DNA of 64,000 nt from a virus (Duplodnaviria > Caudoviricetes): positions 1-64,000 of the IMG/VR virus record IMGVR_UViG_3300046318_000439; one strand, given 5' to 3'. Of this stretch, positions 25,668 to 51,082 are shown piece by piece. Each line of letters opens with the position of its first letter. The first letter of the stretch is position 1. A model generated the notes under the pieces. That model ran no database searches, was not told the origin of the DNA, and saw nothing but the letters and a program-made list of their open reading frames with translations. The position numbers and the translations under genes were made by a program.

Positions 25668-25699
25668 TATTAGTAATTTTCGATATATTTAGGTATTTG

Positions 25700-31260: not shown

Positions 31261-31290
31261 TTTTAAGCACTAAAGTAAGGATTCTTGTTC

Positions 31291-31298
31291 TATTTATA
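31291..31298 (-). promoter_or_regulatory. T4-type late promoter TATAAATA
   Basis: Exact T4 gp55 consensus on the minus strand, ~30 nt upstream of the ATG at 31260. Confidence 0.7.
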
Positions 31299-31319
31299 AC
31301 ACCCATAAACTCTAGTCTG

Positions 31320-31347
31320 TTGACTTTTATAGTATACTAGGTATAAT
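31320..31347 (+). promoter_or_regulatory. Sigma70-type promoter for the polysaccharide deacetylase
   Basis: TTGACT (31320-25), 16-nt spacer, TATAAT (31342-47), upstream of the ATG at 31376. Confidence 0.55.
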
Positions 31348-31375
31348 CAGCTTGTGGCTGTAAATATATAATTAT

Positions 31376-31933
31376 ATGGCTAATAATAAACCAATACTGA
31401 TGATTCACAAGATAGAAGAGGAGATGTTTAAGCTTCCTCTTCATGAGTACACCCTAACATTTGACGATGGGTTATACAATCATTATTTCTATAAAGACGC
31501 GCTGTCTCTAATACCTACTAAAAAGATATTCTTTATATCATCTAATATAGTATGTAATAGTGCTCAAAATCAAGCATTTACCACAAGCGACCTAGCGCAT
31601 GAAAAATCCAAAAATGGCAATTATGAGGATTTCATGACGGTAGATCAGATCAAAGAGATATCAAACACCCCTGATATGGAAATTGGGTGTCATTCCCATT
31701 ATCACAGCAACATTGACCACTTGTCAACGCTAGCAGATAAAATCAAGTTTATTAAGCAGGATACCAACACTTCTTTACAGTGGTTCGCAGATAATGTTGG
31801 CATCATTCCAACTAAGTATTGTTTTCCTTATAACAACGATCTGCAAGGAATGTATAAACTCGCAATACAAGATAAGTTTACGGAGTTTTACGGTCGCGAG
31901 AGAATACCAATTGAAACGCTTCTGCGTAGTTAA
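31376..31933 (+). CDS. Polysaccharide deacetylase (NodB/CE4-like), 185 aa
   Basis: LTFDDG, HSHYH and FPYN motifs. Confidence 0.8.
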   Translation: MANNKPILMIHKIEEEMFKLPLHEYTLTFDDGLYNHYFYKDALSLIPTKKIFFISSNIVCNSAQNQAFTTSDLAHEKSKNGNYEDFMTVDQIKEISNTPDMEIGCHSHYHSNIDHLSTLADKIKFIKQDTNTSLQWFADNVGIIPTKYCFPYNNDLQGMYKLAIQDKFTEFYGRERIPIETLLRS

Positions 31934-32528
31934 ATCCAGCCTGGGAACCTCTTACGGAAGCTACATTGATTACATTATCCACCGATCTGGCATCCGGATA
32001 ATTGTATAACTCAGTACTATAAAGTTCTATAGCTTTACGTTTTATCTCAATCACATCCGATATATCAGAATACACATTCGGATTGAACCCCCCAAACTGA
32101 CCCATACCCCACATTGTACTAGGCACTACTTCTGAGTAATACAATGCGTTTACGGAGGATGAGGGCTTTGGCCTTGATGCTACTAGGCAGCCTTCCGCGA
32201 CCATTCTATGATCAAGATGCACGTCATTTATACTATGAGTGTATATAATTTCTGGCGCATAATGTTGGACCACTCTGCATATATGTTCTGTAACATGTTG
32301 ATTATCAAGGCTACAGTCTGGATTGTCCCATATCAGAGGAGTAGCACCTAACAAATCACATGATAGTTGAAATGCCTGGCCTCTTTGATCTTGTACATTA
32401 GCTCCAGGCCTGTTACCATTGCAAAGAGACATAACAAGCACTTCATGCTGCTTGGCAAGTTTGCTTATTGTTCCAGACGGACCAAAAGCTTCATCATCTG
32501 GGTGTGCAAAAATAAAAGCTATTCTCAT
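31878..32528 (-). CDS. PIG-L/LmbE-family N-acetylhexosamine deacetylase, 216 aa
   Basis: AHPDDE and H.DH zinc motifs; C-terminal YAEAF. Confidence 0.88.
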   Translation of the reverse strand: MRIAFIFAHPDDEAFGPSGTISKLAKQHEVLVMSLCNGNRPGANVQDQRGQAFQLSCDLLGATPLIWDNPDCSLDNQHVTEHICRVVQHYAPEIIYTHSINDVHLDHRMVAEGCLVASRPKPSSSVNALYYSEVVPSTMWGMGQFGGFNPNVYSDISDVIEIKRKAIELYSTELYNYPDARSVDNVINVASVRGSQAGFNYAEAFQLVFSRDRKTP

Positions 32529-33451
32529 AACATTGCTTTTATAATGGCCTCTAAATTGTATCTTGGCTCATATTGAATGTGCCTTTTGATTTTATCTAAC
32601 ACCGGCACTCGATATTGAATATCCACGAACCCGCTAGAAAACGCTTGCTCATATGGCACCATTTTAATATTCGAAGATGATCCACTAACTGCGATTACCT
32701 TTTCTGCTAACTGAAGCATTGTCACAGGCTCAACATTATTACCGATATTAAACAGTTCACCATTTATCTCTGCTACCTTAATCAATGCATCAATAGCGTC
32801 GTTAATGTGACAGAATGAGCGTACTTGTTGTCCATCTCCATGAACAATCAAATCATCACCAGATTTAGCAGCATTAACGAACCTAGGAAGAACCATACCG
32901 AAATCTCCTAGTTGGCCTGGCCCTACTACATTGAAAAAACGTACAATGGTATATGGACATTCAGAGGTACGTATCATAAACTCCGTAAGAAGTTTGGATG
33001 TTGAATACGCCCAACGCGTTTTAGATGATGGTCCTATGTTAGCATTATCTTCTTCACTAAAAGGTCCTTCACCGTAAACTTCAGAAGTAGAAGAAAAAAC
33101 TACGTGAGTCTTTGCTTTATCAAACAAAGGAACTAATTTGTGGGCTAACTTTACATTATTGTAGAGTGTTTCTTTAGGCTTCTTATCTCCCAAAGCTACA
33201 CCAACCGAACCAGCCAAATGATATATCTTATCTTGCTTCTTAAATAACCTAAGGAGGACATCATCATCCATCTCGCCTAAGTCACCTTCTACAAACTCAA
33301 ATAGATTTTTATACTCAGCAAAATCTTCTTTATTGAACTTAGCTGTGTTTAAGTTATCAATTACTGTTACGCGATTTTGTCTGTCTTGTAGTAGTCTATG
33401 TACAAGATGTTGGCCGATGAAGCCCGCGCCGCCCAGAACTAAAATCTTCAT
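32525..33451 (-). CDS. NAD-dependent epimerase/dehydratase (extended SDR; UDP-glucuronate decarboxylase/ArnA-like), 308 aa
   Basis: GGAGFIG, SSTSEVYG, RWAYSTSK (YxxxK), RFFNVVGP, RSFCHIND. Confidence 0.85.
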   Translation of the reverse strand: MKILVLGGAGFIGQHLVHRLLQDRQNRVTVIDNLNTAKFNKEDFAEYKNLFEFVEGDLGEMDDDVLLRLFKKQDKIYHLAGSVGVALGDKKPKETLYNNVKLAHKLVPLFDKAKTHVVFSSTSEVYGEGPFSEEDNANIGPSSKTRWAYSTSKLLTEFMIRTSECPYTIVRFFNVVGPGQLGDFGMVLPRFVNAAKSGDDLIVHGDGQQVRSFCHINDAIDALIKVAEINGELFNIGNNVEPVTMLQLAEKVIAVSGSSSNIKMVPYEQAFSSGFVDIQYRVPVLDKIKRHIQYEPRYNLEAIIKAML

Positions 33452-34004
33452 AAATCTCTCCTAATGTAATCTCTTCAATATTAATACTTCTCAAATCAAT
33501 CAGTGCTTCTACGACCTCGTCTATATGAGCGATGTAGTGTAGAGTGTCTGGCTCGCTAGGTTTGTAAGCGTTTTTATCAACACATCTTTTTATGAAATTG
33601 CTATTATGCATTCCATAACCATACACAGATGGTATTCTATAGTTGATGTGCTTTAATGTACTATTATTTAGGTAGATCTCCATACACCGTTTTGCAACAT
33701 TATATGACCCTTGAGGTGTATCATTGATGTCTGCAGCTCCCTTAGAAGAAGCATTTATAAACAAAGCAGTTGGACATATTTGAATGGCTGCTCGTGTTGC
33801 GTCCATAATTGAATCCATCACCTCCAGTGGATTACTATTGATGCGTTCCGTAGTAGATGGAGATGCTAAGTGATATACTCTATCACATTCTATCTGAGGA
33901 AAAGGTCGACCCATAGGATGTACAACATAACCACGTTTTAGTAGTTCTTTAACTAAGTTACTTCCTATAAATCCACTAGCGCCAGTAACAACTACTTTTT
34001 CCAT
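33396..34004 (-). CDS. Short NAD-dependent epimerase/reductase (SDR), 202 aa
   Basis: Start corrected to MEKVVVTG (34004); TGASGFIG and YNVAK (YxxxK). Confidence 0.8.
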   Translation of the reverse strand: MEKVVVTGASGFIGSNLVKELLKRGYVVHPMGRPFPQIECDRVYHLASPSTTERINSNPLEVMDSIMDATRAAIQICPTALFINASSKGAADINDTPQGSYNVAKRCMEIYLNNSTLKHINYRIPSVYGYGMHNSNFIKRCVDKNAYKPSEPDTLHYIAHIDEVVEALIDLRSINIEEITLGEIYEDFSSGRRGLHRPTSCT

Positions 34005-34483
34005 ACTTCTCCATCCCACCCCAATCTAATATACCTACACCCTTTAACTTGTAATCCTTCTTTTATGTTCTTTACAAACGTCTGTCGGTCTGGTGGATCA
34101 AAAAGTGGTATGTCTAAAGCCTGCATTAACAATTGATCATCATCCAATAAATGACCTCTTCCGCAAATAGAATAACAACCATTAGATCCAGCATTGACAA
34201 ATATTACCGATCCGTGGTGCTCTGCCCAACCTTTAACATTCAATTTTATTTGCTCGTAGGCTTTGTATAAAACAAATCCAGCAACTCCATATACAATCAC
34301 TCGCTTGCCCTGAGACGCTAAACCAGCTGCAATATTAACCATTGTAGGTTCTTGTATTCCGCAGTTAATCACTCTTTCAGGATATCTACTTACAAACTTT
34401 TTAAATCCCCACATATCAGCATGTAGAAGATAAATGTCATTATTTCCCGCTCTAGCTAAGAATGTGTCCAAAGTACTTCTCAT
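33992..34483 (-). CDS. Transketolase-like, pyrimidine-binding subunit, 163 aa
   Basis: PERVINCGIQEPTMVNIAAGLA..G motif. Confidence 0.8.
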   Translation of the reverse strand: MRSTLDTFLARAGNNDIYLLHADMWGFKKFVSRYPERVINCGIQEPTMVNIAAGLASQGKRVIVYGVAGFVLYKAYEQIKLNVKGWAEHHGSVIFVNAGSNGCYSICGRGHLLDDDQLLMQALDIPLFDPPDRQTFVKNIKEGLQVKGCRYIRLGWDGEVWKK

Positions 34484-35175
34484 AACATACTATCCAATTC
34501 TTCTTGTGTGCTAATTTTTCTATAATGCCATTTCTGTACATTTTCCGACATGCATTGCACGCCGTTACCCTTCGTTGTATTGCAGAACACCACATTGGGG
34601 TGGTGACTGCACAGGTGGTCGAACGCTTTCCTCAATTCCTGCTTATTATGCCCATCTACCTCTTGTACACTCCAGCCGTAGTTATCAAAGAAAGATTTGC
34701 ACGGATCAATCGAAACAATGTCCTTTGTACAACCAGTGACCTGAGCGTTATTATTATCAATGGTTACAAAAATGTTACTAATCTTATGTTGACCTATAAA
34801 CTGTATCGCTTCTAAAATATTGCCCATTTGAAGACTTGCATCACTAAGATTCACCCAAACACGTTTAGGATTTACTAAAGCGATTCCAATTGCAACTCCA
34901 AGAGCATTACCGATTGTTTCGTCAGCATAATCTACAAATGATATTTCATCATGCTTAACTCCAACATTCAGTTGTTCAATATTGTCGATTAACCCCATAT
35001 CCTTCCACACGAGATAATATGCCTGAGCTCCAAACGGTTTTCCAATTACAATACCATCCGTGGGTTTGACATACTGATCTTTAAATAAAACCTCAATGTA
35101 ATCCAACATACTTAATGCTGAAGGTATGTGAGATAGTTTATTGTGGTATGAGTAGGTTAGTAATTTATTCTTCAA
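34480..35175 (-). CDS. Transketolase-like, ThDP-binding N-terminal subunit, 231 aa
   Basis: HIPSALS, SDASLQMG...EA...IDNN, GW.V.EVDGH, TTKG.GV..WH; TTG start overlapping the upstream stop. Confidence 0.8.
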   Translation of the reverse strand: MKNKLLTYSYHNKLSHIPSALSMLDYIEVLFKDQYVKPTDGIVIGKPFGAQAYYLVWKDMGLIDNIEQLNVGVKHDEISFVDYADETIGNALGVAIGIALVNPKRVWVNLSDASLQMGNILEAIQFIGQHKISNIFVTIDNNNAQVTGCTKDIVSIDPCKSFFDNYGWSVQEVDGHNKQELRKAFDHLCSHHPNVVFCNTTKGNGVQCMSENVQKWHYRKISTQEELDSML

Positions 35176-36193
35176 TTTGTTTTGGGGGCTTCACTTTATT
35201 AACATAATAATCGCCAGAGCAAATATCCCAGCGACATATTGAACCACTATTATGCAATATTACCATTTTGGTTACTGCTAGGGGATCAGTTACTAAATTA
35301 GTATAAACATCTTTTGGATTCTGCTCTTGCAGGAAGTTGGTCATTGGTCTAGAGCACACAAATACATTACCATCTCCATTTAGATACATGGTGCGCTTAC
35401 CCGCATCGCATTGCCATCCAGTAAAATCAACCCCTCGTTTAAATAGATCATTAGTTGAATATTCAACTCCATCCACTTTATACATTCGTTGGGTTTTGTT
35501 GTGTTTTTTGTAGAAAGCTAAATGACTGTCTCTAATATCATCACTATATTCGTAAGCGTAATAATCGTATATCATCTCACTATTTAATATATTTTTATAT
35601 TGTAAATACTTCTCTACTCTTTCATAGAACTCATTCAATAATTCTTTAGGTATATTTTCCAACATAATATCTAGATTGTATATTGGAATACCCTTAGCTT
35701 CAAGCATCGCAAAGTTATCTTCAAAGTCTTTCAGCTTATATCCGCCACCACGCGTTTTCAATTCCATGAAGTGGTAGGATATACCAATGCGGTCAAAAAG
35801 GTGTATGATCTTCTCTAACTTAGCTGGAGGTAAAGACAAATTGGTTTGCATTTCAATAAACGCTTCTATTCCAGTTTCTTTTGACTTTTGTTTAATGTAG
35901 GATAAAATGTCATACACTCTGTTATGCCGGGTTGCCTCTCCTCCATGGCAATAAAACACAACTCGTTTAAACTTAACCTTGTTAAAGAATATAAACAATT
36001 TGTCTATGGATGTGATAATATCTTCATATGCATAATGCTTGCCAGAATACCAATAGCAATACTCACACTTTAAGTCGCAAGCTTCCGTGATTCGTATTTG
36101 TACGTGATACTCAGAGGCTATGGCATCAGTTCTTCTCTCGCCCTCAATAATCTCATAGCTCTTTGTTGGCTTTAATCTGCGATAGACATTCAC
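35165..36193 (-). CDS. Radical SAM protein, 342 aa
   Basis: CDLKCEYC, HGGEAT; C-terminal FTGWQC...GDGNVFVC...C; GTG start overlapping the upstream TGA. Confidence 0.85.
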   Translation of the reverse strand: MNVYRRLKPTKSYEIIEGERRTDAIASEYHVQIRITEACDLKCEYCYWYSGKHYAYEDIITSIDKLFIFFNKVKFKRVVFYCHGGEATRHNRVYDILSYIKQKSKETGIEAFIEMQTNLSLPPAKLEKIIHLFDRIGISYHFMELKTRGGGYKLKDFEDNFAMLEAKGIPIYNLDIMLENIPKELLNEFYERVEKYLQYKNILNSEMIYDYYAYEYSDDIRDSHLAFYKKHNKTQRMYKVDGVEYSTNDLFKRGVDFTGWQCDAGKRTMYLNGDGNVFVCSRPMTNFLQEQNPKDVYTNLVTDPLAVTKMVILHNSGSICRWDICSGDYYVNKVKPPKQIEE

Positions 36194-36996: not shown

Positions 36997-36997
36997 A

Positions 36998-37753
36998 TTA
37001 CATTAAAAAACACTTGTCGTGATTGCATATGCCATCATGCTTTGTTCGATAGCAACAATTATACAATTCTAAATTGGGTCCATATAGAAAATACTTACCA
37101 TTGTACATGCATGGCTTACCTCGAGGACTGAAGTTGGGATCTCCCCACACTTCAGAACGGAACTTGCCTAAGCGCTCTACATTTTCAAACTGAATAAACT
37201 TAGTGTAATTGGAGTCCCGTCTTAAGGCATTAAATTCTTCTAAAGCCCCATTGGATATACCATCTCCAAAGTCTGATATTGGTGTTAGAAATAAACTCGG
37301 ATGATTATCTGTTAACTCTTTCACCTTTAGATAGTATTTAATAGCTTCTTTACCAGTGTACATTACATCAATCACTTTTATGTTTACTGGATTGTTATTA
37401 AACAAATCGTCAAGCTGATCCAATCTTATCTCTGTAGGATGTATGCTTATGTTGATCTGAAATGGATGTTTGATCCGCTTCATTACAGCAACACTCTTTT
37501 TGCTAAAGTTAGTTTGTATTACAAACGGAACGCTGAACTCATTAAAACATTCTATAATATGTTCAATGTGGGGATGAATGAAAGGCTCACCTCCAAATAT
37601 AAAAACTTCTACGCCAGGATACTTTTCCCCTAATCCTTTAATAAACTCGCGGAGCACATTCTTATCCATTTCAGTGCGCAATGACTGATCTAAGTTGGTG
37701 CAGTAAAAACACCCAAAATTACATTTAAGAGTTATTTCCCATTCAACTAGCAT
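36998..37753 (-). CDS. Radical SAM protein, 251 aa
   Basis: CNFGCFYC, FGGEPF, QTN; C-terminal Cys cluster. Confidence 0.85.
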   Translation of the reverse strand: MLVEWEITLKCNFGCFYCTNLDQSLRTEMDKNVLREFIKGLGEKYPGVEVFIFGGEPFIHPHIEHIIECFNEFSVPFVIQTNFSKKSVAVMKRIKHPFQINISIHPTEIRLDQLDDLFNNNPVNIKVIDVMYTGKEAIKYYLKVKELTDNHPSLFLTPISDFGDGISNGALEEFNALRRDSNYTKFIQFENVERLGKFRSEVWGDPNFSPRGKPCMYNGKYFLYGPNLELYNCCYRTKHDGICNHDKCFLM

Positions 37754-38648
37754 CTCGCACCTTTAGTTGTTTAAGTAACCCATCGCAATTACAGGCTCGA
37801 TGAGGACACGTCATAGGAATGGTTTTAGTTATTCTTTTGAAATAGTCTGGATCATCTAATAAATTAGTACGAGCATGCTCCATACAGAATTTAATTACTC
37901 CCCCATCCACATCTATCTCATAGTTGTTATTGTAACAACTCCATCCCTTAAAGTTAGTAAGCTTCTGATTATATACTTGATAGTCATTAAACACATCATC
38001 ATCATAACATAGATCTTTTTCAAAATCTTCTAAAAACTTAAAGTACTCCCAAAAATCTTGTCTGTAGTTAAATAGCGTGTGTACGTTCTTTCCGTAAATA
38101 AAATGAGGATGAACTTTGAGACCATCAATCTTGGCACATATTTCAAACATCTCTTTTATTAAAGGCCATAATTTTTTATCATGATGAAGCATGATGTTGA
38201 CCTTACATTGATACCCACGACTTATCATCAACTTGATATTAGATATAAATCTATCTCGATCTGTACAATCAGCTGGATGATAAGAAAACAAAAAAGCTAC
38301 TCTATCACTATACTGGGGATGATCGGTGAAATCTTTCTCTGCATTAGTAACAACATATACGCGGTTAAATTTATCAATCGTGGCAAGTTGGTTTAGGATG
38401 TAATAATAATGAGGGTTGAGGGTAGGTTCTCCACCAAGCAATCCTAGATTGAATGGTAAACTACTTCGTCTTAGGGATTCAATCACCCCATCAATAACTT
38501 CTTTCTTTCCCAGCTTACCCCACTTCTCACCATACTCATTTCTAGCATAGCAGTATGAGCACTTTAACTGACAAATAGTCAAAGTATCCCAATGCACATT
38601 GATGTGATCAGGATTCTGCTGATTGTGATATTGTTTAGAGTATTTCAT
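37743..38648 (-). CDS. Radical SAM protein, 301 aa
   Basis: CQLKCSYC, LGGEPTL; C-terminal FKGWSC...C...CPHRACNCD. Start moved to MKYSKQ (38648). Confidence 0.85.
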   Translation of the reverse strand: MKYSKQYHNQQNPDHINVHWDTLTICQLKCSYCYARNEYGEKWGKLGKKEVIDGVIESLRRSSLPFNLGLLGGEPTLNPHYYYILNQLATIDKFNRVYVVTNAEKDFTDHPQYSDRVAFLFSYHPADCTDRDRFISNIKLMISRGYQCKVNIMLHHDKKLWPLIKEMFEICAKIDGLKVHPHFIYGKNVHTLFNYRQDFWEYFKFLEDFEKDLCYDDDVFNDYQVYNQKLTNFKGWSCYNNNYEIDVDGGVIKFCMEHARTNLLDDPDYFKRITKTIPMTCPHRACNCDGLLKQLKVRDAS

Positions 38649-39249
38649 TTTTAGGAAAGGAGATGTTATCTCCTCCATCTATTGTTTGGTAATATAAAAC
38701 TTTACTTAATGTTTTGATGCTGGAAGCTTTAGATGCTGCATGCATAGTTAGTTTTATGTCGTTGTGAATGTCGCCATCATTAGGAAAGTTAAAATCACAA
38801 ATCACAGACCGTTTGTATATGTGCTGAGATAGTTGTAGATGTTCTATATTAACACTATCCATAAATTCTTTAGGAGTTAACCATGCATCTTTATATAGAG
38901 TCATAAATGTTAGCATGTTTGGGGTTTCATAACGCGGACAATAATTTCCAGCGATCAAATCAGCATCTAATACTTGATCAAAGAACCCTTCTACTAAGTA
39001 ATCATCATCTTCTAAGAAATATACATACTCCCCTTGAGCTGCTGATAGTAGCAGCTGATAAACTCCACAAAGAGTATCTGTCTTATTGTAGTAATAAGTT
39101 ACTTGAGGATGGTTTATTTCCAATATATCCATACTATCATTATTAACTATAACCTCCACATCAGACGTAATTTGAGCAAGCACACTCTCTAGGCAACGAG
39201 TGAACAGCTTAGGTCTATTGTGAGTAGGTATTAGTATGGATAGCTTCAT
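38635..39249 (-). CDS. Glycosyltransferase family 2, 204 aa
   Basis: SILIPTHNRP..RCLESV..Q, A.GEYVYFLEDDD. Confidence 0.85.
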   Translation of the reverse strand: MKLSILIPTHNRPKLFTRCLESVLAQITSDVEVIVNNDSMDILEINHPQVTYYYNKTDTLCGVYQLLLSAAQGEYVYFLEDDDYLVEGFFDQVLDADLIAGNYCPRYETPNMLTFMTLYKDAWLTPKEFMDSVNIEHLQLSQHIYKRSVICDFNFPNDGDIHNDIKLTMHAASKASSIKTLSKVLYYQTIDGGDNISFPKNEIL

Positions 39250-40400: not shown

Positions 40401-41334
40401 TGTTTACCGCCATTTGTTCTTTAACGTAACCAACAAAAAAATCATTAGGAAGAAGTTCTAACCCATTTAAATTAGAATCAATATCTTCTCTTCTTCTATC
40501 AATTCCCCTGCATTCGTAATCAATTTCATACACAACATTTTTTCCATACACGGCACACTCAACGATAAACCTTGGACTGCAGTCTATCTGCCATCTTGTA
40601 GGGGTGTATATGTACGTATCAAATTTCTCAAAGATGTTTTTAATTGGAGCTCTAACAACTTCTACATTTGGTTGCTTAATACTTTCATACAAGTCTGGAT
40701 TGTTTGTGACAATAAGATATTTCTCACATATTTTTTTATCTATAATATGTTTGATGTTATCTGCAGCAGTGGCTCTCATGCTGGTGGTTAGATACAGTAA
40801 TGCAGTGTTTGTTAAGGATTGCTTTGGGGGTTGATATCTTCCCCATAGTATCTTTTTAACATAATCTACTACTTTAATGTTTAGCTCCTCAAACCGTTCT
40901 GGATATAGTTTAAAGTCTTGCATTAAATGTGTGCGCTTGATTGTTTTATTATTATGAAAATAACCAAAATTATTTTCTGAACACCTTAACAGAAATACAT
41001 TATCAGCATACATTACACAATCAAGGATGCGCCACGAACCATCTACTATACAAACATTATTGGCTAATATTATCTTGGGACGATAACACTCAAACGTGTT
41101 GTCTAATATATCCCTCAACTCTTTGTCGTTGAAATTATATTTGTCCTTTAAAGCTGTGGTGAATATTTCTTTGGTAATTCCATCTGATAAAAGTACAGCA
41201 CATTTAATATTGTTAATACTACAAATATAATAATAGTCTATCATCTCGTAAAGATGACCAGACACTCCATGAGTATAAAAGAATGATGTTGTGAATACTA
41301 AGTCATAATCCTTTAGATTGAGTATCTTCGACAT
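40393..41334 (-). CDS. Hypothetical protein, possibly degenerate GT-B glycosyltransferase, 313 aa
   Basis: Coupled ORF; C-terminal DCSPRFIVECAVYGKNV resembles the GT-B E/D-x7-E...G.pV motif. Confidence 0.45.
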   Translation of the reverse strand: MSKILNLKDYDLVFTTSFFYTHGVSGHLYEMIDYYYICSINNIKCAVLLSDGITKEIFTTALKDKYNFNDKELRDILDNTFECYRPKIILANNVCIVDGSWRILDCVMYADNVFLLRCSENNFGYFHNNKTIKRTHLMQDFKLYPERFEELNIKVVDYVKKILWGRYQPPKQSLTNTALLYLTTSMRATAADNIKHIIDKKICEKYLIVTNNPDLYESIKQPNVEVVRAPIKNIFEKFDTYIYTPTRWQIDCSPRFIVECAVYGKNVVYEIDYECRGIDRRREDIDSNLNGLELLPNDFFVGYVKEQMAVNNE

Positions 41335-42224
41335 TATTGCTTTTCCTTATAAAAGTTTAGCATAAAGTCAGCATGACAATACTCTCTGGGGCATGTTACG
41401 TTCACGCAGGCATTCTGTTTATTGATTCGAATCGGCATAGGAGCTCTCGTGCACGAGTTAACTATTGTACCATCAGATAAGATTTCATATAACAAAGCCT
41501 TACAACGATATCCCTTGAATTTGACCATGTCATCTTTCAAGGCATTGAATATTGGAACATGCACTTCCCGACCGTCGCTATATTGAAAGCGATATGTTTG
41601 TTTATCAGCTATGTTCTTGAGTCTAGGTTCAAATATCTTATAAAACTCATCATTATACGTTATTGTATTGCCTGGAGTGGATAATAATATATTGAGATCG
41701 TATCTTACGCCATGGCGGTCGAACTGATCGATCATGTCTAATATCTGAGGCCAGTCTTTTGGATTATCTGATAAATTTATATGACAGTAGAAGTTCTTGT
41801 CTTTAAAAGCTATACACTTATCAAGAAATGTCTGATCGTAATATTGTGCATGGTATGAGGCTGCTAGTCGTATCTTATCGCTGACAAATGTCTGCTGCAA
41901 GAAATGCATGGGCTTTGATAGATTTGTTTTAATTTCTATCAGTGTACACTTAGACATATCAGATAGTTGCTGAAGGATGTCTATAAAGTTTGGATGAAGA
42001 GTGGGTTCTCCGCCATACAGATCTACTTCAAAATCTGTATCAATCATAGAAAGTCTTTGAAGTACTAGCTTGTGTTTGGATGGCGATGTATCTTTAGAAT
42101 ATCGCTCTACCATTTTGTCTGCAGCGTTACAATAGGTGCACTTAAAGTTACACCAATCTACAAGGAACCATTCAAAGTGTATTGTGTTATAATTTTCAAT
42201 ACCAACATTATCTATAGCGGTCAT
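41334..42224 (-). CDS. Radical SAM protein, 296 aa
   Basis: CNFKCTYC, YGGEPTLHP, KTNLS; C-terminal FKGYRC...DG...C...CPREYC. Confidence 0.85.
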   Translation of the reverse strand: MTAIDNVGIENYNTIHFEWFLVDWCNFKCTYCNAADKMVERYSKDTSPSKHKLVLQRLSMIDTDFEVDLYGGEPTLHPNFIDILQQLSDMSKCTLIEIKTNLSKPMHFLQQTFVSDKIRLAASYHAQYYDQTFLDKCIAFKDKNFYCHINLSDNPKDWPQILDMIDQFDRHGVRYDLNILLSTPGNTITYNDEFYKIFEPRLKNIADKQTYRFQYSDGREVHVPIFNALKDDMVKFKGYRCKALLYEILSDGTIVNSCTRAPMPIRINKQNACVNVTCPREYCHADFMLNFYKEKQ

Positions 42225-42230
42225 TTTGCT

Positions 42231-43148
42231 TTATGGGGATAGCACTTGATCTGGCTGAACTTGTTCGTACCCTAAAATTTCAAACACATTGTGTGGTATC
42301 TGTGGCATTTCAGCTTGCTCATCGAGTGCTGTTAAGGCAGTGTTAATCTTAGACAAGCGCTCCAACTTCGAAGCAAACTGAGTAGTAGGAACTATGTTAG
42401 TATACTCATATTCAGTAATGTACTGGTTGTGTTTTACTATTTGAGGTATATTGATAGTTCGTTCGAGTACATTAATATACCCATTCTCAATTATATCTTC
42501 AAACTTAATGTAATGAACATTGGGTCCTCCCAACTGCCTCATCACGCACATATTTAACAATGACTCCACATACGATTGTCCAACCATATCCTCCACCAGG
42601 AACCATTCTGCAGTGGCTTGTGGGGTATTATCAATTAGATATGTTATGGAAGGATTACGTTCTATACACAAAACCACAACATTGGTTTCTCCTATATCAG
42701 CTCTAACCCGCTCAATAAAGTTTTTAGAGAACAGGCCAGAAACCACATGCACATCAAAGGGACTATTTTCATATGCTTGCATGAATTCTTCATACGATCC
42801 CCCTGTGTTTTCTGGAGGTAGTCCTAAATCTGGAGTAAGATTGTTAAACTTGTCTCCATAGTAGGTTAGTTCTGGATTTGTGAAAGATTTGAGAGTGTCA
42901 ATATTTCTAACAAATGTCAACCCTCCATCAGCAGCGTATAGCAACGTTTCCGATCCATTAGGATCTTCAGAGGAAACTGGTTTATATACAAGTTCGGAGT
43001 CGGCATTATATACTTCAATTGGAATAGTATGAATATTTGCTGTGTAGTTTCCAATTGAATAATTGTCGTAGTTATTAAAGGCGCGGGACACTTCATAAGC
43101 AATCCCTGGCTTAAACGCTCCTACCGACCCTGTTACAAATATTAACAC
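42231..43148 (-). CDS. Hypothetical protein, weak sulfotransferase/P-loop-like resemblance, 305 aa
   Basis: AGGAG RBS and GTG start; N-terminal FVTGSVGAFK, later IERNP and IKFEDII. Confidence 0.45.
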   Translation of the reverse strand: MLIFVTGSVGAFKPGIAYEVSRAFNNYDNYSIGNYTANIHTIPIEVYNADSELVYKPVSSEDPNGSETLLYAADGGLTFVRNIDTLKSFTNPELTYYGDKFNNLTPDLGLPPENTGGSYEEFMQAYENSPFDVHVVSGLFSKNFIERVRADIGETNVVVLCIERNPSITYLIDNTPQATAEWFLVEDMVGQSYVESLLNMCVMRQLGGPNVHYIKFEDIIENGYINVLERTINIPQIVKHNQYITEYEYTNIVPTTQFASKLERLSKINTALTALDEQAEMPQIPHNVFEILGYEQVQPDQVLSP

Positions 43149-43149
43149 A

Positions 43150-43551
43150 CTATCTCCTTAGATACTCTTCTACTATTGAGTTAACAGCATCCCTATCATT
43201 GTAATTGGTTAGCGATTGTAATTTACTAATAATGCCTGTATACTCTTTTTTTTGTTCTTCTAGACGCTTGATATTATCCTTAAGACTTAGATATATCTCT
43301 AAATCATTAATTAAGTATTCGTCCCCTGTCTCGATAATCTTAATGTAGCATTCTTCTTTGTTTTTATCGGTAATAATTATTCCTCTATCGAGAAACTTAT
43401 TATTAATTAGCATTATGGAAATAAAGTCTAGCAGTTTAAATGTTAATAAATCATCCCCAATTATCCCTCGCACTTTTATTTTACATGCGGCTGCCGCTTT
43501 ACCAGCATAGGTACTACTATCAATACATTCAACTTCTTTATACTTCTCCAT
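43150..43551 (-). CDS. Hypothetical accessory protein, 133 aa
   Basis: Its ATG overlaps the TGA of the Cys-repeat gene; helical/coiled-coil C-terminus. Confidence 0.65.
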   Translation of the reverse strand: MEKYKEVECIDSSTYAGKAAAACKIKVRGIIGDDLLTFKLLDFISIMLINNKFLDRGIIITDKNKEECYIKIIETGDEYLINDLEIYLSLKDNIKRLEEQKKEYTGIISKLQSLTNYNDRDAVNSIVEEYLRR

Positions 43552-44309
43552 CAGTCACCTCTTAACATATCCACTGGTAATTTGTCATAATCTACTACGT
43601 AAAATCCATTGTCCGCTTTACTTACAGCATCAGCATATTCTGTGCCTAATAACTCTTGAGCCATAACTCCAACATATGTGGTATCTTTATCCCAAATGTA
43701 GCTAAAGGAATATAATTTTATTCCATGCTCAGAGCCAACATACTTAATATTTTCTTTTAATCGTTTGTCGCTATAGTTGCAATTACATGTGCAAGAGTAA
43801 TTACAATTACATGTACAATAATTACAATTGCATGTGCAATAATTACAGTTGCATGTACATACACCAGCAGCCCCTTGTATATCCGTTATGAGACTATTAA
43901 TGTTGGCAGCTGTGATTGTGCTTCCAATTGATACGCTTGTTGCACCAACATATCCCGCAACGGTTGGCCACAATATTAATTGATTGGCTCCATCGATGTA
44001 TCCATTATTAGGAGGAGATGCTTGAACGTTAAGAGCTGCTCGAAAGTTGTTTATATCGCTAGCAGTAATCGGGGAGCTAGGCGTATATGCCACAGTACCA
44101 ACACGACGTCGTGATCGCTCAGCATTGACAGCAGCAGCAAGTTGCGTATATTGGGATGTTGCAATTAGTTGTCCAGCACTTACATTTGTCAGTGCATGAG
44201 TAGTAGCATCTGATGCGTTTGTGCCATAAACAACAATATATGTTCCACTAAAGCCAGATGCGCTTGTGTTATTGAATGCTGGGACTGGGTACGGGGTGTA
44301 CGTCGCCAT
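43551..44309 (-). CDS. Fibre-like protein with (CTCNCNY)x4 core and C-terminal peptidase S74 intramolecular chaperone, 252 aa
   Basis: GV-CTCNCNY-CTCNCNY-CTCNCNY-S-CTCNCNY directly followed by SDKRLKENI...GVMAQE...VDY (S74 signature). Confidence 0.85.
   Translation of the reverse strand: MATYTPYPVPAFNNTSASGFSGTYIVVYGTNASDATTHALTNVSAGQLIATSQYTQLAAAVNAERSRRRVGTVAYTPSSPITASDINNFRAALNVQASPPNNGYIDGANQLILWPTVAGYVGATSVSIGSTITAANINSLITDIQGAAGVCTCNCNYCTCNCNYCTCNCNYSCTCNCNYSDKRLKENIKYVGSEHGIKLYSFSYIWDKDTTYVGVMAQELLGTEYADAVSKADNGFYVVDYDKLPVDMLRGD
43773..43859 (-). repeat. Four 21-bp coding heptad repeats encoding CTCNCNY
   Basis: 87 nt = 29 codons. The copies differ at synonymous positions, which suggests selection on the protein motif. 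Confidence 0.9.
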
Positions 44310-44323
44310 TTAATTATTCCTTG

Positions 44324-44701
44324 TTAAATTTTTCCTGCTAAGAAGTTTAAATCTTCTTTTGCTTTTGTTTCCGCAATAAACTTTTCATAATCATCTAATT
44401 CTGATGTGATAAAGTCTAATGTTTGTTGATCAGGTTCTTTCATCATATCTACAGCAGAACCGCTTTCCACAACATAACGTACTAGGTCTGCTAAAGAAAA
44501 CCCTAATGCAGCAGAAACCATTTCTATCTGCTCACTAGCTTCAATGGTTTCCCGGCCACCTTTCAAAGCAACCTGCTCCAACGTACGTAATCCTATACCG
44601 AAGCTTTCCATCAATACTGCTCCGACTCCGGAATCTTCTTCTGCAATGTCTTTAATTGCACCAAAAATAATGTCTAATTTATCTTGTATACTCATTTTCA
44701 T
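44324..44701 (-). CDS. Acidic helical hypothetical accessory protein, 125 aa
   Basis: Coupled between a radical SAM gene and the Cys-repeat gene; AGGA RBS. Confidence 0.65.
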   Translation of the reverse strand: MKMSIQDKLDIIFGAIKDIAEEDSGVGAVLMESFGIGLRTLEQVALKGGRETIEASEQIEMVSAALGFSLADLVRYVVESGSAVDMMKEPDQQTLDFITSELDDYEKFIAETKAKEDLNFLAGKI

Positions 44702-45560
44702 TTTCCTTTTCTTTAAAATCGTGGAATTTTAAAGCACTTTCATCATACTTGTATGTTGTAACGTTACCTTCGTCTGTAAAATACGTTTTGGTAGCATGCA
44801 CAACACCGCACCCACTACACATATCGCAGAAAAACTCACAAACTGGTATACTATTATCCCTATTTATCCAATCAGTTCTGAAGCGATTTTTACCGGCTAA
44901 TAACAGCTGTTGATCTTCATCTGAAAGGGTATCCCACGCTATTGACGTAATTACACGCAACGGCTTGAATGTTTTAATAATTCTGTTTATGTCATCATAA
45001 AAAAACTTAATATTATTGTTATGGATAGTATAACGTACTCTGAAACCCATCCTATTTTTCATTAATTTCTTAAATACTGTAATCATGGCTGATGTTGAAT
45101 CAGACCCATCATGGAATATTCTATTACCGTTTCCTACACCATCAAAACTAACATCAATGGACATGAACCCCCTCTTATAGAAAAAGTTCTCCTTTACTTC
45201 TTGCGTAAACTTATCGCTTAGAAATTTAATGCCATTAGTCTCTAAATTAAAATGCACATTCTTTTTCTTGCTGTATGCATACTCCATTAGATAACATACA
45301 TTTTCCCACTGCAATGTTGGTTCCCCTCCAAACAACACTATTAAAGTTTGTTTGTCTGGATCCTCTCTTTCGATAATACCATCAACATATTGTTCAATAT
45401 CTTGCTTTGTTAGAATTTGGGGAGGACGATTCGCCAAATCTTGATAACAATGCTTACATGCCAAATTGCAAACGTTAGTAAAATAAATGACATTAACAGC
45501 TGTATTTTCTTCTACAGGTTTGTCGTCTTTTCTTATAAAGTTTGCAATGATCTCGTTCAT
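44679..45560 (-). CDS. Radical SAM protein, 293 aa (short C-terminal Cys motif)
   Basis: CNLACKHC, FGGEPTL, ETNG, SFDG; CEFFCDMCSGC. Confidence 0.88.
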   Translation of the reverse strand: MNEIIANFIRKDDKPVEENTAVNVIYFTNVCNLACKHCYQDLANRPPQILTKQDIEQYVDGIIEREDPDKQTLIVLFGGEPTLQWENVCYLMEYAYSKKKNVHFNLETNGIKFLSDKFTQEVKENFFYKRGFMSIDVSFDGVGNGNRIFHDGSDSTSAMITVFKKLMKNRMGFRVRYTIHNNNIKFFYDDINRIIKTFKPLRVITSIAWDTLSDEDQQLLLAGKNRFRTDWINRDNSIPVCEFFCDMCSGCGVVHATKTYFTDEGNVTTYKYDESALKFHDFKEKENENEYTR

Positions 45561-45862
45561 TGTATAATCATTTGATGAGAATTCTTATATCGATCATCTT
45601 TAGGACGCGATTGAGCCTCTTTGATAATGTGAGTCATATTATCTAAAAACTTAGGATAGTCAATTTGATATTCGAATAGATGGCCGCGTTCCTGATAATT
45701 AACATACTTACTATCTACACGGGCTTTACCTTTTTTAGCTTCTTCAATTTGCACTGCTAGCTCATCTACAGTCAAAGCATTTCGTGAATCATGCTCTACT
45801 TGACTCATTTCTACTCTCACTGGTATGTCTAGTATACTTTTAAAACGTCTAGGTTCACTCAT
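45557..45862 (-). CDS. Hypothetical accessory protein, 101 aa
   Basis: Overlaps both flanking radical SAM genes (TAATG and ATGA coupling). Confidence 0.65.
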   Translation of the reverse strand: MSEPRRFKSILDIPVRVEMSQVEHDSRNALTVDELAVQIEEAKKGKARVDSKYVNYQERGHLFEYQIDYPKFLDNMTHIIKEAQSRPKDDRYKNSHQMIIQ

Positions 45863-46986
45863 TAGTTTCTACACTCCACGCCTTCATTTTCGACCCCAAC
45901 GTTCTCAATATAATGCAAGATTAAATCTTGGAATACTGGAACGTCTCTGCATTCATCTACCACTCTCATACCCTGCTCGTATGTAATCATAAACAATTCA
46001 CATATACTATCAAGAGGTTTGTTGTCGTTCATAATCTGGGAGTATGTACAGCCAGCATTACAAACTTGTCTTAGCTTACATTCCACACACTTGTCAAAAC
46101 TGTGAGGGCTGAACTTCTCTTGAAAATATTTAAAGTTGTATTGCTCATCAATCTTCATAATCTTTTTACTTGCAAAGCGAGCACAAGGATAAAATTCTCC
46201 ACTGCTCATAAGCACGCCGCCATTGGTACCAGCAAAACATCCTGTTTTACGTTTACCTTTTACTAGACCATACAACGTATCTAAAATAGCAAGTCTCAGG
46301 AATCCAACTGAACACGGAATGCCTGCTTTTAACTTTTCAATATATCGATCAGTTAATCTAATTAATTCTGTACGATATTCTCTGATATCATCAGCCGTCC
46401 ATACATCGTCTCTCACTAAGCTGAAATCTGGATGTTCAATCCCCCAGTCCAACAAAAACTCAAAGTTTTCTGTCATGTCCCTTACATTACCAGGCCAGAT
46501 CATAACTTTGCAACCGTTAGTCAAGTTGACTATAATATCTTTTTTGTATTTGTACAGTTCAAGAATGCCATCAAACAACTTACCAGTTTCTGGGTTTGTG
46601 TTTTCTAGCAGTGGTAGGAGAGGGCGCGTTTCGTTTGAACTCATTCCATCAAAAGACCAAGATACGCCCACACCATTGTCTGTTAGGTACTTGGCTTTCT
46701 CTGCATCAATCATTGTCAGGTTAGTAATAATGTTGATACCTTTACACTTAGGATCTGACTTGAGGTAAGGAACAGCGTGCTGGATTAACTCCCAGTTCAA
46801 TAAAGGTTCCCCGCCAAAGAAGCTAACGTGATATGTGCTATCTCCAGAATTTTTCATCAACACAGGTAAGTCTTGCATGCCTTTGTCAAATACCTCTTTA
46901 GTCATCCAAGTAGGCTTATTAGCAACATAGCAATACGGACATCCTAGATTGCATTTCTCTGTTACTGAAATTTCTAAAGTGAACAT
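45862..46986 (-). CDS. Radical SAM/SPASM-domain maturase-like protein, 374 aa
   Basis: CNLGCPYC, FFGGEPLL, SFDG; SPASM: CFAG...GEFYPC...CVECKLRQVCNAGC...C. Confidence 0.9.
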   Translation of the reverse strand: MFTLEISVTEKCNLGCPYCYVANKPTWMTKEVFDKGMQDLPVLMKNSGDSTYHVSFFGGEPLLNWELIQHAVPYLKSDPKCKGINIITNLTMIDAEKAKYLTDNGVGVSWSFDGMSSNETRPLLPLLENTNPETGKLFDGILELYKYKKDIIVNLTNGCKVMIWPGNVRDMTENFEFLLDWGIEHPDFSLVRDDVWTADDIREYRTELIRLTDRYIEKLKAGIPCSVGFLRLAILDTLYGLVKGKRKTGCFAGTNGGVLMSSGEFYPCARFASKKIMKIDEQYNFKYFQEKFSPHSFDKCVECKLRQVCNAGCTYSQIMNDNKPLDSICELFMITYEQGMRVVDECRDVPVFQDLILHYIENVGVENEGVECRN

Positions 46987-48080
46987 TGTTTAGCCTCAAC
47001 TTTAATAGGGATAATCTTAGAGTTCAGAGCTTTACGTAAAGCATAATGAATAACTTCGTTCATTTTAAACACTTTACATACCTGCCAATTGGATGTATGA
47101 TCACTCCACTTTTCAATATACGTTTCTTTTTCGCTCTTTTCAAACGTAGCAGCATTACACTTCATACAGAATTGAGAATCGCACGATTGACAATCAAGCG
47201 GTTGATTCTTTAAGGCATCCTTAAACATCTCTGTTTTCTCTTTGATCAGAGCATCGATATCTGGTACATTGCGAATGTTGCCTAATACGTGTGCGTGGGA
47301 TTCCTTATACATGCATCCATGACAAGGACTAATGTCACCGTTCAAATCCACGCTGACATAATTGATACCAGCAGAGCACAAGGCTCGCGATTGTTGGAAC
47401 CATCCAAACTTTTCTGGTGGAAGTTTATTTGTGTAGATATACTTTGCTATCTTTGTCAACCCAACTTTAAGTTCTTCCATGTGAACAGCAAATTCTTCCT
47501 GTGACAGAGTAGAATACAAGTCAGGAGTAGGGAAGTAGTTATCCGCCATACTAATGACGTCAAGAAATGCTTCGTAAATTAGATGAAAATGCTTAGCTGT
47601 TAATACTGATTTCATATTAACGTTCAGACCATTTTGTTTAGCAGCAAGATAGTTAGATTTAACTAACGCTGAAGATGGGTTACCTACCTTATCAATTCTC
47701 GTAATGTCGTTTACAGGTTTACCATCATATGATATTTGAAGGCGCAATCTGCCTTGACCTAATTCTTTATGCAACTGAACTAATTCAGCCATGTACTTCT
47801 TTAGATACACTCCATTTGTGTAAAAGAAGAAAGAGAAGTTAGGATCGTGTTTGTACTTATCAATCACCCCTTTGCAAAATTCCCAGTTTACAAATGGTTC
47901 TCCACCCCAAAAATACACGTCCTTTTTAGGATCGGATATTTTGGACATGAATTCGTCAATGTTGTCGAGAGTAACTGATGTGTTTTCTTCAAATTCAGTG
48001 GATAGACCGCACTCATACCCCTCTGAACAGTATGTACATGCTAGATTGCACGTGCTTGTTACGTTAATGTCAATAACCAT
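46974..48080 (-). CDS. Radical SAM/SPASM-domain maturase-like protein, 368 aa
   Basis: CNLACTYC, FWGGEPF, YTNG, SYDG; SPASM: CSAG...GDISPCHGC...CQSCDSQFCMKC...C. Confidence 0.9.
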   Translation of the reverse strand: MVIDINVTSTCNLACTYCSEGYECGLSTEFEENTSVTLDNIDEFMSKISDPKKDVYFWGGEPFVNWEFCKGVIDKYKHDPNFSFFFYTNGVYLKKYMAELVQLHKELGQGRLRLQISYDGKPVNDITRIDKVGNPSSALVKSNYLAAKQNGLNVNMKSVLTAKHFHLIYEAFLDVISMADNYFPTPDLYSTLSQEEFAVHMEELKVGLTKIAKYIYTNKLPPEKFGWFQQSRALCSAGINYVSVDLNGDISPCHGCMYKESHAHVLGNIRNVPDIDALIKEKTEMFKDALKNQPLDCQSCDSQFCMKCNAATFEKSEKETYIEKWSDHTSNWQVCKVFKMNEVIHYALRKALNSKIIPIKVEAKQCSL

Positions 48081-48111
48081 AGTATAAATCTCTCATTGTG
48101 AGTGTTACAAA

Positions 48112-48855
48112 TTACTGTTGTGATCTGTATTCGTAGTTTAATTCCAGTATGGTATTTAGCAATCTAATATCATACTGTTTTGCTAGGGCTTCAGTATCCT
48201 TTGGCAAACAAGGACCTCCAAACCCACGCTTTCCGTCTGGACCAGGTACGCTAAAGTGGGTCGTGCCCATGTATGGGTGATGGATTAACATAGATGTTAG
48301 TTCAGAAAACTCTACTCCCATTTCCTTAGCTACATCGTGTATGGAATTCATATATGTTACCTTTAGGGCTGCAAATGAATTGAGAGTGTATTTAAATAAT
48401 GCTGCAGTCTTAATATCCACGAGAAACGTTTTACCTGGAACTACCGTAGACTGTTGTTCATATATTTGGAGTAGCCGCTCAGCCTTTTCTCTATCACCAC
48501 CAATCACGAGTACTGGCGGCGCTACAAAATCGCTAAAGGATGTTGTTCGCGATAAAAACTCTGGGTTGTATAATATATCAAACTCCTCCAAATGGTGGGG
48601 GAGGATTGTTGATTTAACTACTGTAAGACCCTTGTAATTACTTTTCCTGATTTCCTGAAGTACTTGCTTTAGAATACTATAATCAGTATCGTCAGTAGGA
48701 GTGGGCACGCACACAAAAATGACGTCTGGATTTTGCATGCAGACGTCATTTATTGTTGTTGTGTTATACTGAGGATCACTTATCACAGAAGTTGTATGTT
48801 TGAAGCCGTACTCTACAGCTTTACCTACCATACCATAACCAATAATACCAATCAT
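48112..48855 (-). CDS. ugd: UDP-glucose/GDP-mannose 6-dehydrogenase family (lacks C-terminal UDP-binding domain), 247 aa
   Basis: GYGMVG, CVPTP, KST, NPEFL, GFGGPCLPKD with the catalytic Cys. Confidence 0.85.
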   Translation of the reverse strand: MIGIIGYGMVGKAVEYGFKHTTSVISDPQYNTTTINDVCMQNPDVIFVCVPTPTDDTDYSILKQVLQEIRKSNYKGLTVVKSTILPHHLEEFDILYNPEFLSRTTSFSDFVAPPVLVIGGDREKAERLLQIYEQQSTVVPGKTFLVDIKTAALFKYTLNSFAALKVTYMNSIHDVAKEMGVEFSELTSMLIHHPYMGTTHFSVPGPDGKRGFGGPCLPKDTEALAKQYDIRLLNTILELNYEYRSQQ

Positions 48856-50310: not shown

Positions 50311-50344
50311 TAGTTTCCCTTTCCACTAACGTTAAATTGTATAA

Positions 50345-51079: not shown

Positions 51080-51082
51080 ATA

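Follow-up and report, generated by a model that had tools for sequence, protein, structure and literature searches.

A conserved cassette of radical SAM and sugar-enzyme genes around a Cys-repeat fibre-like protein in a freshwater T4-like phage

What does a tailed phage do with 23 contiguous genes for sugar enzymes, radical S-adenosylmethionine (rSAM) proteins and a fibre-like protein? We asked this of positions 31376-48855 (the island) in the first 64 kb, here called the window, of one phage contig (202,272 bp, 39% GC; IMG/VR record IMGVR_UViG_3300046318_000439). The carrier is a freshwater T4-like phage; T4-type features in the window include a VrlC-like gene and collagen-like fibre genes, and near-identical island DNA turns up in no fewer than 12 metagenome studies of freshwater or aquatic samples. 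A megablast search of the phage collection with the island DNA gave no match and thus no close DNA relative there. Comparison with more distant relatives reveals that the island is one conserved cassette, whose gene content indicates that it probably decorates a virion protein. The best candidate is a protein with a Cys repeat encoded in the middle of the cassette, because its repeat is invariant, because of that mid-cassette position, and because an ortholog is present in virions.

One conserved cassette

Relatives were located with one of the radical SAM proteins, rSAM E, as the query, which returned six IMG/VR contigs; a query with the 313-aa glycosyltransferase-like protein of the island returned none on its own. 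In five of these six contigs the whole island is found in the same order, from the gene for a protein like UDP-glucose dehydrogenase (UGD) to the convergent gene for a carbohydrate esterase family 4 (CE4) deacetylase, at 50–84% identity, and the convergent position of the CE4 gene is the same in five of five. Homology between these contigs and the window begins and ends at those two genes. The ends of the modification island proposed in an initial annotation of this DNA are therefore the true ends of the cassette. The 23 genes are given below from the 5′ to the 3′ end; SDR denotes a short-chain dehydrogenase/reductase, ThDP thiamine diphosphate, PP and Pyr its pyrophosphate- and pyrimidine-binding domains, GT a glycosyltransferase, and CP220 a Campylobacter phage of the genus Firehammervirus.

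48112..48855, minus strand: UGD-like dehydrogenase, 247 aa, cassette 5′ end
46974..48080, minus strand: rSAM A, with a SPASM domain, 368 aa (Pfam Radical_SAM 52.8 bits, SPASM 28.2 bits)
45862..46986, minus strand: rSAM B, PapB/CteB-like, 374 aa (NCBIfam PapB)
45557..45862, minus strand: conserved 101-aa protein, gene overlapping those of rSAM B and rSAM C
44679..45560, minus strand: rSAM C, with a C-terminal Cys cluster, 293 aa (CP220 homolog 83807-84766)
44324..44701, minus strand: conserved acidic 125-aa protein
43551..44309, minus strand: Cys-repeat fibre-like protein, 252 aa, with a variable N-terminal part, (CTCNCNY)x4, then an S74 intramolecular chaperone
43150..43551, minus strand: conserved 133-aa protein directly after the fibre-like gene (61–72% identity in relatives; CP220 homolog, E 6e-18)
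42231..43148, minus strand: sulfotransferase-like protein, 305 aa (ESM Atlas features, Foldseek)
41334..42224, minus strand: rSAM D, 296 aa
40393..41334, minus strand: GT-B fold glycosyltransferase-like protein, 313 aa, phrog_24441
39246..40400, minus strand: rSAM E, 384 aa
38635..39249, minus strand: GT2 glycosyltransferase, 204 aa, EDDD motif
37743..38678, minus strand: rSAM F, 311 aa
36998..37753, minus strand: rSAM G, 251 aa
36190..36996, minus strand: U32-like protein, 268 aa, four conserved Cys (Pfam U32 E 1e-3, below cut-off; ESM Atlas)
35165..36193, minus strand: rSAM H, 342 aa
34480..35175, minus strand: ThDP enzyme, PP-domain subunit, transketolase-like, 231 aa (PF00456)
33992..34483, minus strand: ThDP enzyme, Pyr-domain subunit, 163 aa (PF02779)
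33396..34019, minus strand: short SDR, 207 aa, Rossmann domain with GxxGxxG and YxxxK
32525..33451, minus strand: extended SDR, full-length, UXS/ArnA-like, 308 aa
31878..32528, minus strand: PIG-L/LmbE-family deacetylase, 216 aa
31376..31933, plus strand: CE4/NodB-type deacetylase, 185 aa, convergent, cassette 3′ end

The open reading frame listing and the Pfam and NCBIfam searches place every gene that the initial annotation had named at its position and in its orientation, and confirm that the genes are co-oriented (22 on the minus strand) with the CE4 gene as the sole exception. Those named genes are eight of the 23, however: the inventory omitted all eight radical SAM genes, and also the GT-B protein, the sulfotransferase-like and U32-like proteins, three small proteins and the Cys-repeat/S74 protein.

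Gene order is the most constant property of the cassette. From rSAM A it runs through the Cys-repeat protein, GT-B and GT2 to rSAM H in 10 of 10 contexts, this phage included, and it continues to ThDP, SDR, PIG-L and CE4 wherever the DNA of a context reached that far. Five further contexts, drawn from the family of the Cys-repeat protein, keep the same order, with the UGD-like gene missing in two. The GT2 gene always lies between radical SAM genes in the contexts read; in relative G005 an in-frame fusion joins it to an rSAM D paralog (43014-44582, minus strand, 522 aa), and in relative G002 the two are separate but overlapping genes. The flanks of the cassette in the relatives are mostly unlike those in this phage. 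The Cys-repeat family comprises 669 clusters in metagenomes, on contigs of up to 364 kb. Environmental phage contigs that carry the cassette number in the hundreds, and its carriers include probable jumbo phages.

Larger versions of the cassette place a Trp-halogenase-family gene between two ThDP genes and add three 2-oxoglutarate (2OG) oxygenases, a cytidylyltransferase, and extra rSAM D and U32-like paralogs. The halogenase-family gene (E 1e-66) was seen at 3828-5099 of L026, which represents relative G003, and at 13360-14502 of L043; in G003 it sits between the ThDP subunit genes, and the three 2OG-Fe(II) oxygenases and the cytidylyltransferase are encoded as well. These halogenase, oxygenase and cytidylyltransferase enzymes need oxygen or add tailoring steps, and all are absent from this phage.

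The candidate target and the radical SAM proteins

An alignment of 23 members of the Cys-repeat family shows that the repeat columns are invariant, and that the other columns average 32% identity. In two relatives the protein terminates right after the repeat, which is the point at which S74 cleavage is expected in the others. The gene lies about 370 bp downstream of rSAM C in every context, with the gene for the 125-aa protein between them, and a literature search for the CTCNCNY repeat motif returned irrelevant matches only. The 133-aa protein is possibly an assembly factor; complex prediction for the 101-, 125- and 133-aa proteins, each against the Cys-repeat protein, gave a score of 0.00 and no verdict.

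All eight radical SAM proteins contain the CxxxCxxC core, which starts at residues 11–38, together with a C-terminal Cys cluster, and the Pfam SPASM model matches rSAM A. From their sequences, rSAM A to C (44679-48080) resemble SPASM thioether maturases. rSAM A is PapB/SCIFF-like, at scores under the equivalog cut-offs, with a CP220 homolog at 164742-165911. rSAM B matches PapB over profile positions 5–320 of 330 and has a CP220 homolog at E 6e-84. Its best solved relative is PDB 5wgg, which we take to be CteB, and the alignment starts at 5wgg residue 101, which suggests that rSAM B has no leader-binding domain. Between rSAM E and the CP220 radical SAM protein gp163 the identity is 49%; the nearest solved relatives of rSAM E are SkfB and BlsE, and PDB sequence searches with rSAM D and rSAM H returned no matches. 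Recent duplication as the source of the eight radical SAM genes was rejected, as their mutual identity is only 23–32%.

By family and by structure, rSAM A, B, C and E come closest to the PapB, CteB/SCIFF, QhpD and SkfB maturases, with which they have in common the CxxxCxxC core and SPASM-type Cys clusters, and a Cys-rich substrate candidate is encoded alongside. Unlike those systems, the island has no RiPP recognition element (RRE; RiPP, ribosomally synthesised and post-translationally modified peptide), its scores are far under the family cut-offs, and its candidate is a virion-type protein of 170–340 aa rather than a short secreted peptide.

The cassette families also recur in a distant phage lineage, the Campylobacter Firehammerviruses CP220, CPt10 and IBB_35. 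At least 15 of the 23 have specific homologs in CP220 when the whole genome is searched with tblastn and family hidden Markov models (rSAM A to E, GT-B, UGD-like, both SDRs, both ThDP subunits, PIG-L, CE4, the 133-aa protein and the Cys-repeat protein). Within the phage collection, the GT-B protein is found in Firehammervirus only, and the closest homologs of the PP subunit are also in Firehammervirus (about 40% identity), followed by weaker matches (24–32%) in fecal, Listeria and Acinetobacter records. The CP220 Cys-repeat protein has 534 aa and seven CTC[DN]CNY repeats, without S74; the gene for the Pyr subunit lies directly upstream of it, and the rSAM A homolog 2 kb downstream. As in the island, the SDR, PIG-L and CE4 genes are adjacent in the Firehammerviruses. 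In contrast to the scattered genes of CP220, the families here form one operon-like block, which links the CP220-type families to one pathway. A vestige of the GT2 gene is seen at 70499-70585 of CP220 (NC_027997.1), where an N-terminal remnant, 82% identical to the island GT2 over its first 23 residues, is followed by a stop and then by two radical SAM genes; decay, an intron or a sequencing problem could each account for it.

The Campylobacter phages also provide the link to the virion. Gene 3-9 of IBB_35, 94% identical to the CP220 Cys-repeat protein and of the same length and position, is in the list of virion proteins detected by mass spectrometry (PMC3322345). Together with the S74 fibre-type protein in the middle of the island, this ortholog lends support to the connection with the virion that the initial annotation had drawn. 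The 11–12 radical SAM genes in CP220 and CPt10 have been called highly unusual, with no role assigned (PMC2853527), the deacetylases of IBB_35 have been guessed to degrade capsule (PMC3322345), and the Firehammervirus genes of radical SAM and carbohydrate type have never been given a function (PMC2853527, PMC3322345).

Sugar enzymes, a proposed maturation pathway and its alternatives

The catalytic motifs of the sugar enzymes are intact, save for an altered cofactor motif in the ThDP enzyme. The initial proposal of a modification island is borne out, with functional-looking sugar enzymes and two glycosyltransferases, GT2 and GT-B. The UGD-like protein has GYGMVG (GxGxxG) at residue 6 in its NAD-binding domain (PF03721, 46.6 bits) and the catalytic-Cys motif GGPCLPKD at residue 213, with the central domain PF00984 at 55.7 bits. 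It has no C-terminal UDP/GDP-binding domain: it ends at profile position 295 of 413, and its solved relatives, of 388–495 aa, align only to about residue 300. The length in the relatives is 236–248 aa, and the UDP-binding domain is absent from every copy. The 308-aa SDR has GGAGFIG (GxxGxxG) and YSTSK and matches PF01370 over its full length; its solved relatives include UXS1, ArnA and apiose/xylose synthase, and it scores below the equivalog cut-offs for UXS/ArnA (NF008872, 120.8 bits against 294; ArnA, 101.3 against 777). The 207-aa SDR lacks the C-terminal substrate domain. We considered whether the short UGD-like and SDR proteins are pseudogene fragments and rejected this, as their lengths are conserved in the relatives at about 60% identity and their motifs are intact. 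Because length and sequence are kept in the relatives, the short UGD-like, SDR and ThDP forms are not debris.

The initial description of the ThDP enzyme as a split transketolase stands insofar as the PP and Pyr domains are on separate chains and the best solved relative of the PP subunit is the N-terminal component of a split transketolase. It does not extend further: the 163-aa Pyr chain has no Transketolase_C match, and all NCBIfam scores are far under the cut-offs. The PP subunit has SDA...(29)...N in place of GDG...N, with the Asp and Asn kept, and the Pyr chain carries the activating catalytic Glu (GIQE). In the PIG-L protein, AHPDD is at residue 8 and HLDH (HxxH) at residue 104 (PF02585, 66.5 bits against a cut-off of 28.2); in the CE4 protein, TFDD is at residue 28 and HSHYH (HSxxH) at residue 106 (PF01522, 25.4 bits against 23.1).

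The model of the 313-aa protein has a predicted local distance difference test score (pLDDT) of 86.9 and its top PDB structure matches are all GT-B glycosyltransferases, so we assign it with confidence as glycosyltransferase-like with a GT-B fold. The 305-aa protein is sulfotransferase-like on two weak leads, ESM Atlas features and a best Foldseek match, from a model with pLDDT 68, to the CurM sulfotransferase domain (E 5.8e-4, low TM-score); it also has a conserved RNP motif. A similarly weak lead makes the 268-aa protein U32-like, with eight of 12 family members matching U32 weakly. This copy of the cassette encodes no nucleotidyltransferase or aminotransferase. None of the island proteins has a transmembrane-like segment (no protein reaches a 19-residue hydropathy of 1.5), and no Pfam family of a membrane initiating transferase, flippase or polymerase occurs among them.

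Four things argue for one cytoplasmic pathway: gene order is fixed, the families recur in a distant phage lineage, GT2 can be fused to a radical SAM protein, and all the proteins are soluble. We favour, while placing it somewhat short of an even chance, a system that crosslinks and glycosylates its own Cys-repeat virion protein. The protein would be made with its variable N-terminal part, the invariant (CTCNCNY)n core and, in most versions, the S74 chaperone, which would trimerise it and then cut itself off, so that the repeat becomes the C-terminus. The SPASM-type rSAM A to C may put crosslinks or other radical modifications into the core. GT2 and GT-B would add sugars, probably from host UDP-GlcNAc or UDP-Glc, and the attached glycan might then be tailored by PIG-L, CE4, the UGD-like protein, both SDRs, the ThDP enzyme, the sulfotransferase-like protein and rSAM D to H. 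The predicted product is a virion fibre tip that bears many modifications.

Enzymes of the PIG-L and CE4 families take as substrates sugars that have already been attached. Because of this, and because the UGD-like protein and the short SDR have lost nucleotide-binding domains, we favour glycan tailoring on protein over the synthesis of a free nucleoside diphosphate (NDP) sugar. The phage also encodes Fe-S assembly genes, for IscU and two IscA proteins, which in relatives lie beside the cassette and which we count for the maturation of the Cys-repeat protein. In glycopeptide and aminoglycoside tailoring, PIG-L enzymes likewise deacetylate GlcNAc already on the aglycone, and SunS-type GT2 enzymes glycosylate Cys in glycocins; the island GT2 matches SunS only weakly (E 5.5e-4), and both are analogies of logic only. 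It is conceivable, with more doubt attached, that a dedicated 20-gene system in many environmental phages and in Firehammerviruses matures a fibre tip in RiPP-like fashion, with radical SAM crosslinks, glycosylation, sulfation and, in part of these phages, halogenation, into a chemically exotic, non-proteinogenic receptor-binding or stabilising tip.

Several observations weigh against crosslinking and glycosylation of the Cys-repeat protein. No RRE is recognisable in rSAM A to C and no separate RRE-like protein was identified; the three small proteins have no Pfam match. The radical SAM matches to named maturases are all far under the equivalog cut-offs, the best being that of rSAM B to PapB at 138.8 bits against 340. 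In CP220 the homologs are scattered over 177 kb, often beside nucleotide-metabolism genes, and GT2 is reduced to a remnant of 29 codons. The virion mass spectrometry coverage of IBB_35 gene 3-9 was 2.6% (PMC3322345). The repeat contains no N-x-S/T sequon, and alternating Cys could bind metal in a trimeric needle with no enzymes needed.

The last point can be taken further, to a Cys repeat that is a metal-binding or disulfide needle among enzymes unrelated to it, their linkage being historical. On a strand of a trimer, alternating Cys would all point the same way, comparable to the iron-binding His repeats at the tip of the T4 long tail fibre, Fe-S assembly genes accompany the cassette and an RRE was not found; even so, colinearity despite differing flanks and the recurrence in Firehammervirus are hard to explain without a shared function, and we consider this very unlikely. 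The initial annotation had instead proposed an NDP-sugar pathway, in which UGD turns UDP-Glc into UDP-GlcA, the UXS/ArnA-like SDR makes a UDP-4-keto-pentose from this and the ThDP enzyme adds a C2 unit, the resulting unusual branched or higher-carbon sugar going onto virion fibres generally. A branched-sugar route of this UGD-UXS-transketolase kind is possible and chemically reasonable: all three enzyme families are present and active-looking by their motifs, the 308-aa SDR has UXS1, ArnA and apiose/xylose synthase among its solved relatives, the two island glycosyltransferases are adjoined by a 1116-aa protein with several glycosyltransferase domains and a methyltransferase domain, and fibre genes lie on either side of the block in this phage. 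It uses only three genes, however, and has no explanation for 15 of the 23, including the eight radical SAM genes and the Cys-repeat candidate; every copy of the UGD-like protein lacks the UDP-binding domain, the SDR falls well short of the UXS/ArnA cut-off (120.8 bits against 294), the ThDP genes are split by a halogenase gene in relatives and are 94 kb apart in CP220, and the fibre flanks are not conserved. The yersiniose precedent does not fit either, as its enzyme YerE is of another ThDP type, an acetolactate-synthase-type flavoenzyme and not a transketolase. We regard this pathway as unlikely.

Host-directed activity, in which the enzymes remodel lipopolysaccharide, capsule, peptidoglycan or nucleotide-sugar pools and so block superinfection or aid release, also seems improbable. 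CE4 and PIG-L enzymes are able to deacetylate cell-wall glycans, and such roles have been proposed for the IBB_35 deacetylases (PMC3322345) and for pelagimyophage hypervariable regions with glycosyltransferases, UGD and radical SAM cassettes (PMC7029224). Against this, the island encodes no membrane, secreted, flippase, polymerase or initiating-transferase protein, and the idea does not account for the strict tie of the enzymes to SPASM-type radical SAM proteins and a virion protein with an invariant Cys repeat. The mix of radical SAM proteins, ThDP enzyme and sulfotransferase-like protein is like that of a biosynthetic cluster, and could make a small molecule or free peptide (nucleoside-, aminoglycoside- or RiPP-like) with the Cys-repeat protein as precursor or scaffold. 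The Trp-halogenase-family gene, three 2OG oxygenases and cytidylyltransferase of relatives would suit such a natural product, as would the resemblance of rSAM E to BlsE and SkfB and the occurrence of PIG-L enzymes in aminoglycoside and glycopeptide pathways. S74 chaperones, though, are characteristic of fibres and spikes that form trimers, an ortholog of the Cys-repeat protein is present in virions, and the cassette encodes no exporter or protease, which makes a natural product quite unlikely. Least probable of all, we think, is hypermodification of phage DNA with a sugar or other adduct. Several CP220 homologs adjoin thyX, nrdB, tk and helicase genes, and radical SAM enzymes take part in some thymidine hypermodification pathways (PMC8989533); the cassette, for its part, has no DNA-binding, base-exchange or kinase step, and a separate 7-deazaguanine system lowers the likelihood; 2′-deoxy-7-amido-7-deazaguanosine (dADG) is reported to replace G in CP220 DNA (bioRxiv 10.1101/2023.04.13.536721).

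The gene families in CP220-type phages are already known, as are radical SAM cassettes in pelagimyophage fibre regions (PMC7029224). In the literature searched we did not find the single conserved cassette, its link to an invariant Cys-repeat virion protein or the breadth of the family. Likened by description, the hypervariable fibre region of pelagimyophages and cyanomyophages likewise follows a VrlC-like gene, lies among fibres and carries glycosyltransferases, UGD and radical SAM cassettes (PMC7029224); that region is variable and was guessed to alter host O-chains (PMC7029224), whereas here the cassette is fixed, colinear and accompanied by a Cys-repeat protein. In mycobacteriophage virion glycosylation and in the capsid glycan machinery of chloroviruses, virus-encoded glycosyltransferases also stand next to structural genes, but those systems have no radical SAM enzymes and no Cys-repeat target, and for the present phage glycosylation is a prediction. 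The initial view that virion glycans are a strategy of giant viruses rather than of tailed phages is out of date, since glycosylation of mycobacteriophage virions and capsids is discussed in papers.

The many radical SAM genes of CP220-type phages have been unexplained since 2010, and the same families are found here around one Cys-repeat protein. A list of odd genes thereby becomes a single pathway with a named candidate substrate, which a phage that can be grown on its host would allow to be tested. Should crosslinks and glycans on the virion protein be confirmed, both RiPP-type chemistry and complex tailoring of glycans would reach phage structural proteins. This would matter for how hosts are recognised, for the stability of virions, for immune recognition of Campylobacter phages used in therapy and for the discovery of enzymes.

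Surroundings of the island

Outside the island, the following features of the window were noted.

48868-52033: fibre-like genes on one side of the island, plus a VrlC-like gene
48868-50310, minus strand: fibre-like protein, 480 aa, upstream of the island
29272-30693 and 21885-25598: fibre-like genes on the other side
25697-29047, plus strand: multi-GT protein, 1116 aa, with GT4-type, GT2, GT2/GT21-like and FkbM methyltransferase domains, between fibre genes

The island is thus flanked by fibre genes in this phage, as first described. In the relatives the neighbours include DNA ligase, IscU/IscA, lysozyme and HNH genes, and therefore an argument from fibre flanks is not general. The last 120 residues of the 480-aa protein match CP220 proteins and also a 689-aa protein that flanks the cassette in relative G002 and has a weak match to the Peptidase_G2 autoproteolytic domain. 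The 1116-aa protein has no full-length homolog in the phage collection; its architecture recalls multi-domain viral glycan-building enzymes, and its series of three glycosyltransferases and a methyltransferase recalls the chlorovirus enzyme A064R.

Scans for sigma-70-like promoters and terminators gave chance-level results, and the T4 late-promoter motif TATAAATA is depleted in the window (two copies against 8.4 expected), with neither copy where the island begins. Next to the 3′ end of the island, a gap of 115 bp (31261-31375) has a near-consensus sigma-70-like promoter at 31320-31347 (plus strand), directed toward the CE4 gene, and one copy of TATAAATA at 31291-31298 (minus strand), directed toward a 109-aa gene. 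The interior of the island (34000-46000) is AT-rich, with a GC fraction of 0.35–0.37, as is the multi-GT gene (26000-28000, 0.35), relative to the genome mean of 0.39; the fibre genes at 1–10 kb and 22–24 kb, at 0.42–0.46, are above the island interior. Beyond the window, at contig positions 121503-122517, 151847-153379 and 158026-158865, are genes for IscU (NifU_N, E 7e-53), for two proteins of IscA type, for a B12-binding radical SAM protein and for a P-loop protein resembling adenosine 5′-phosphosulfate (APS) kinase. The IscU/IscA trio and the gene for the kinase-like protein are immediate neighbours of the cassette in relatives.

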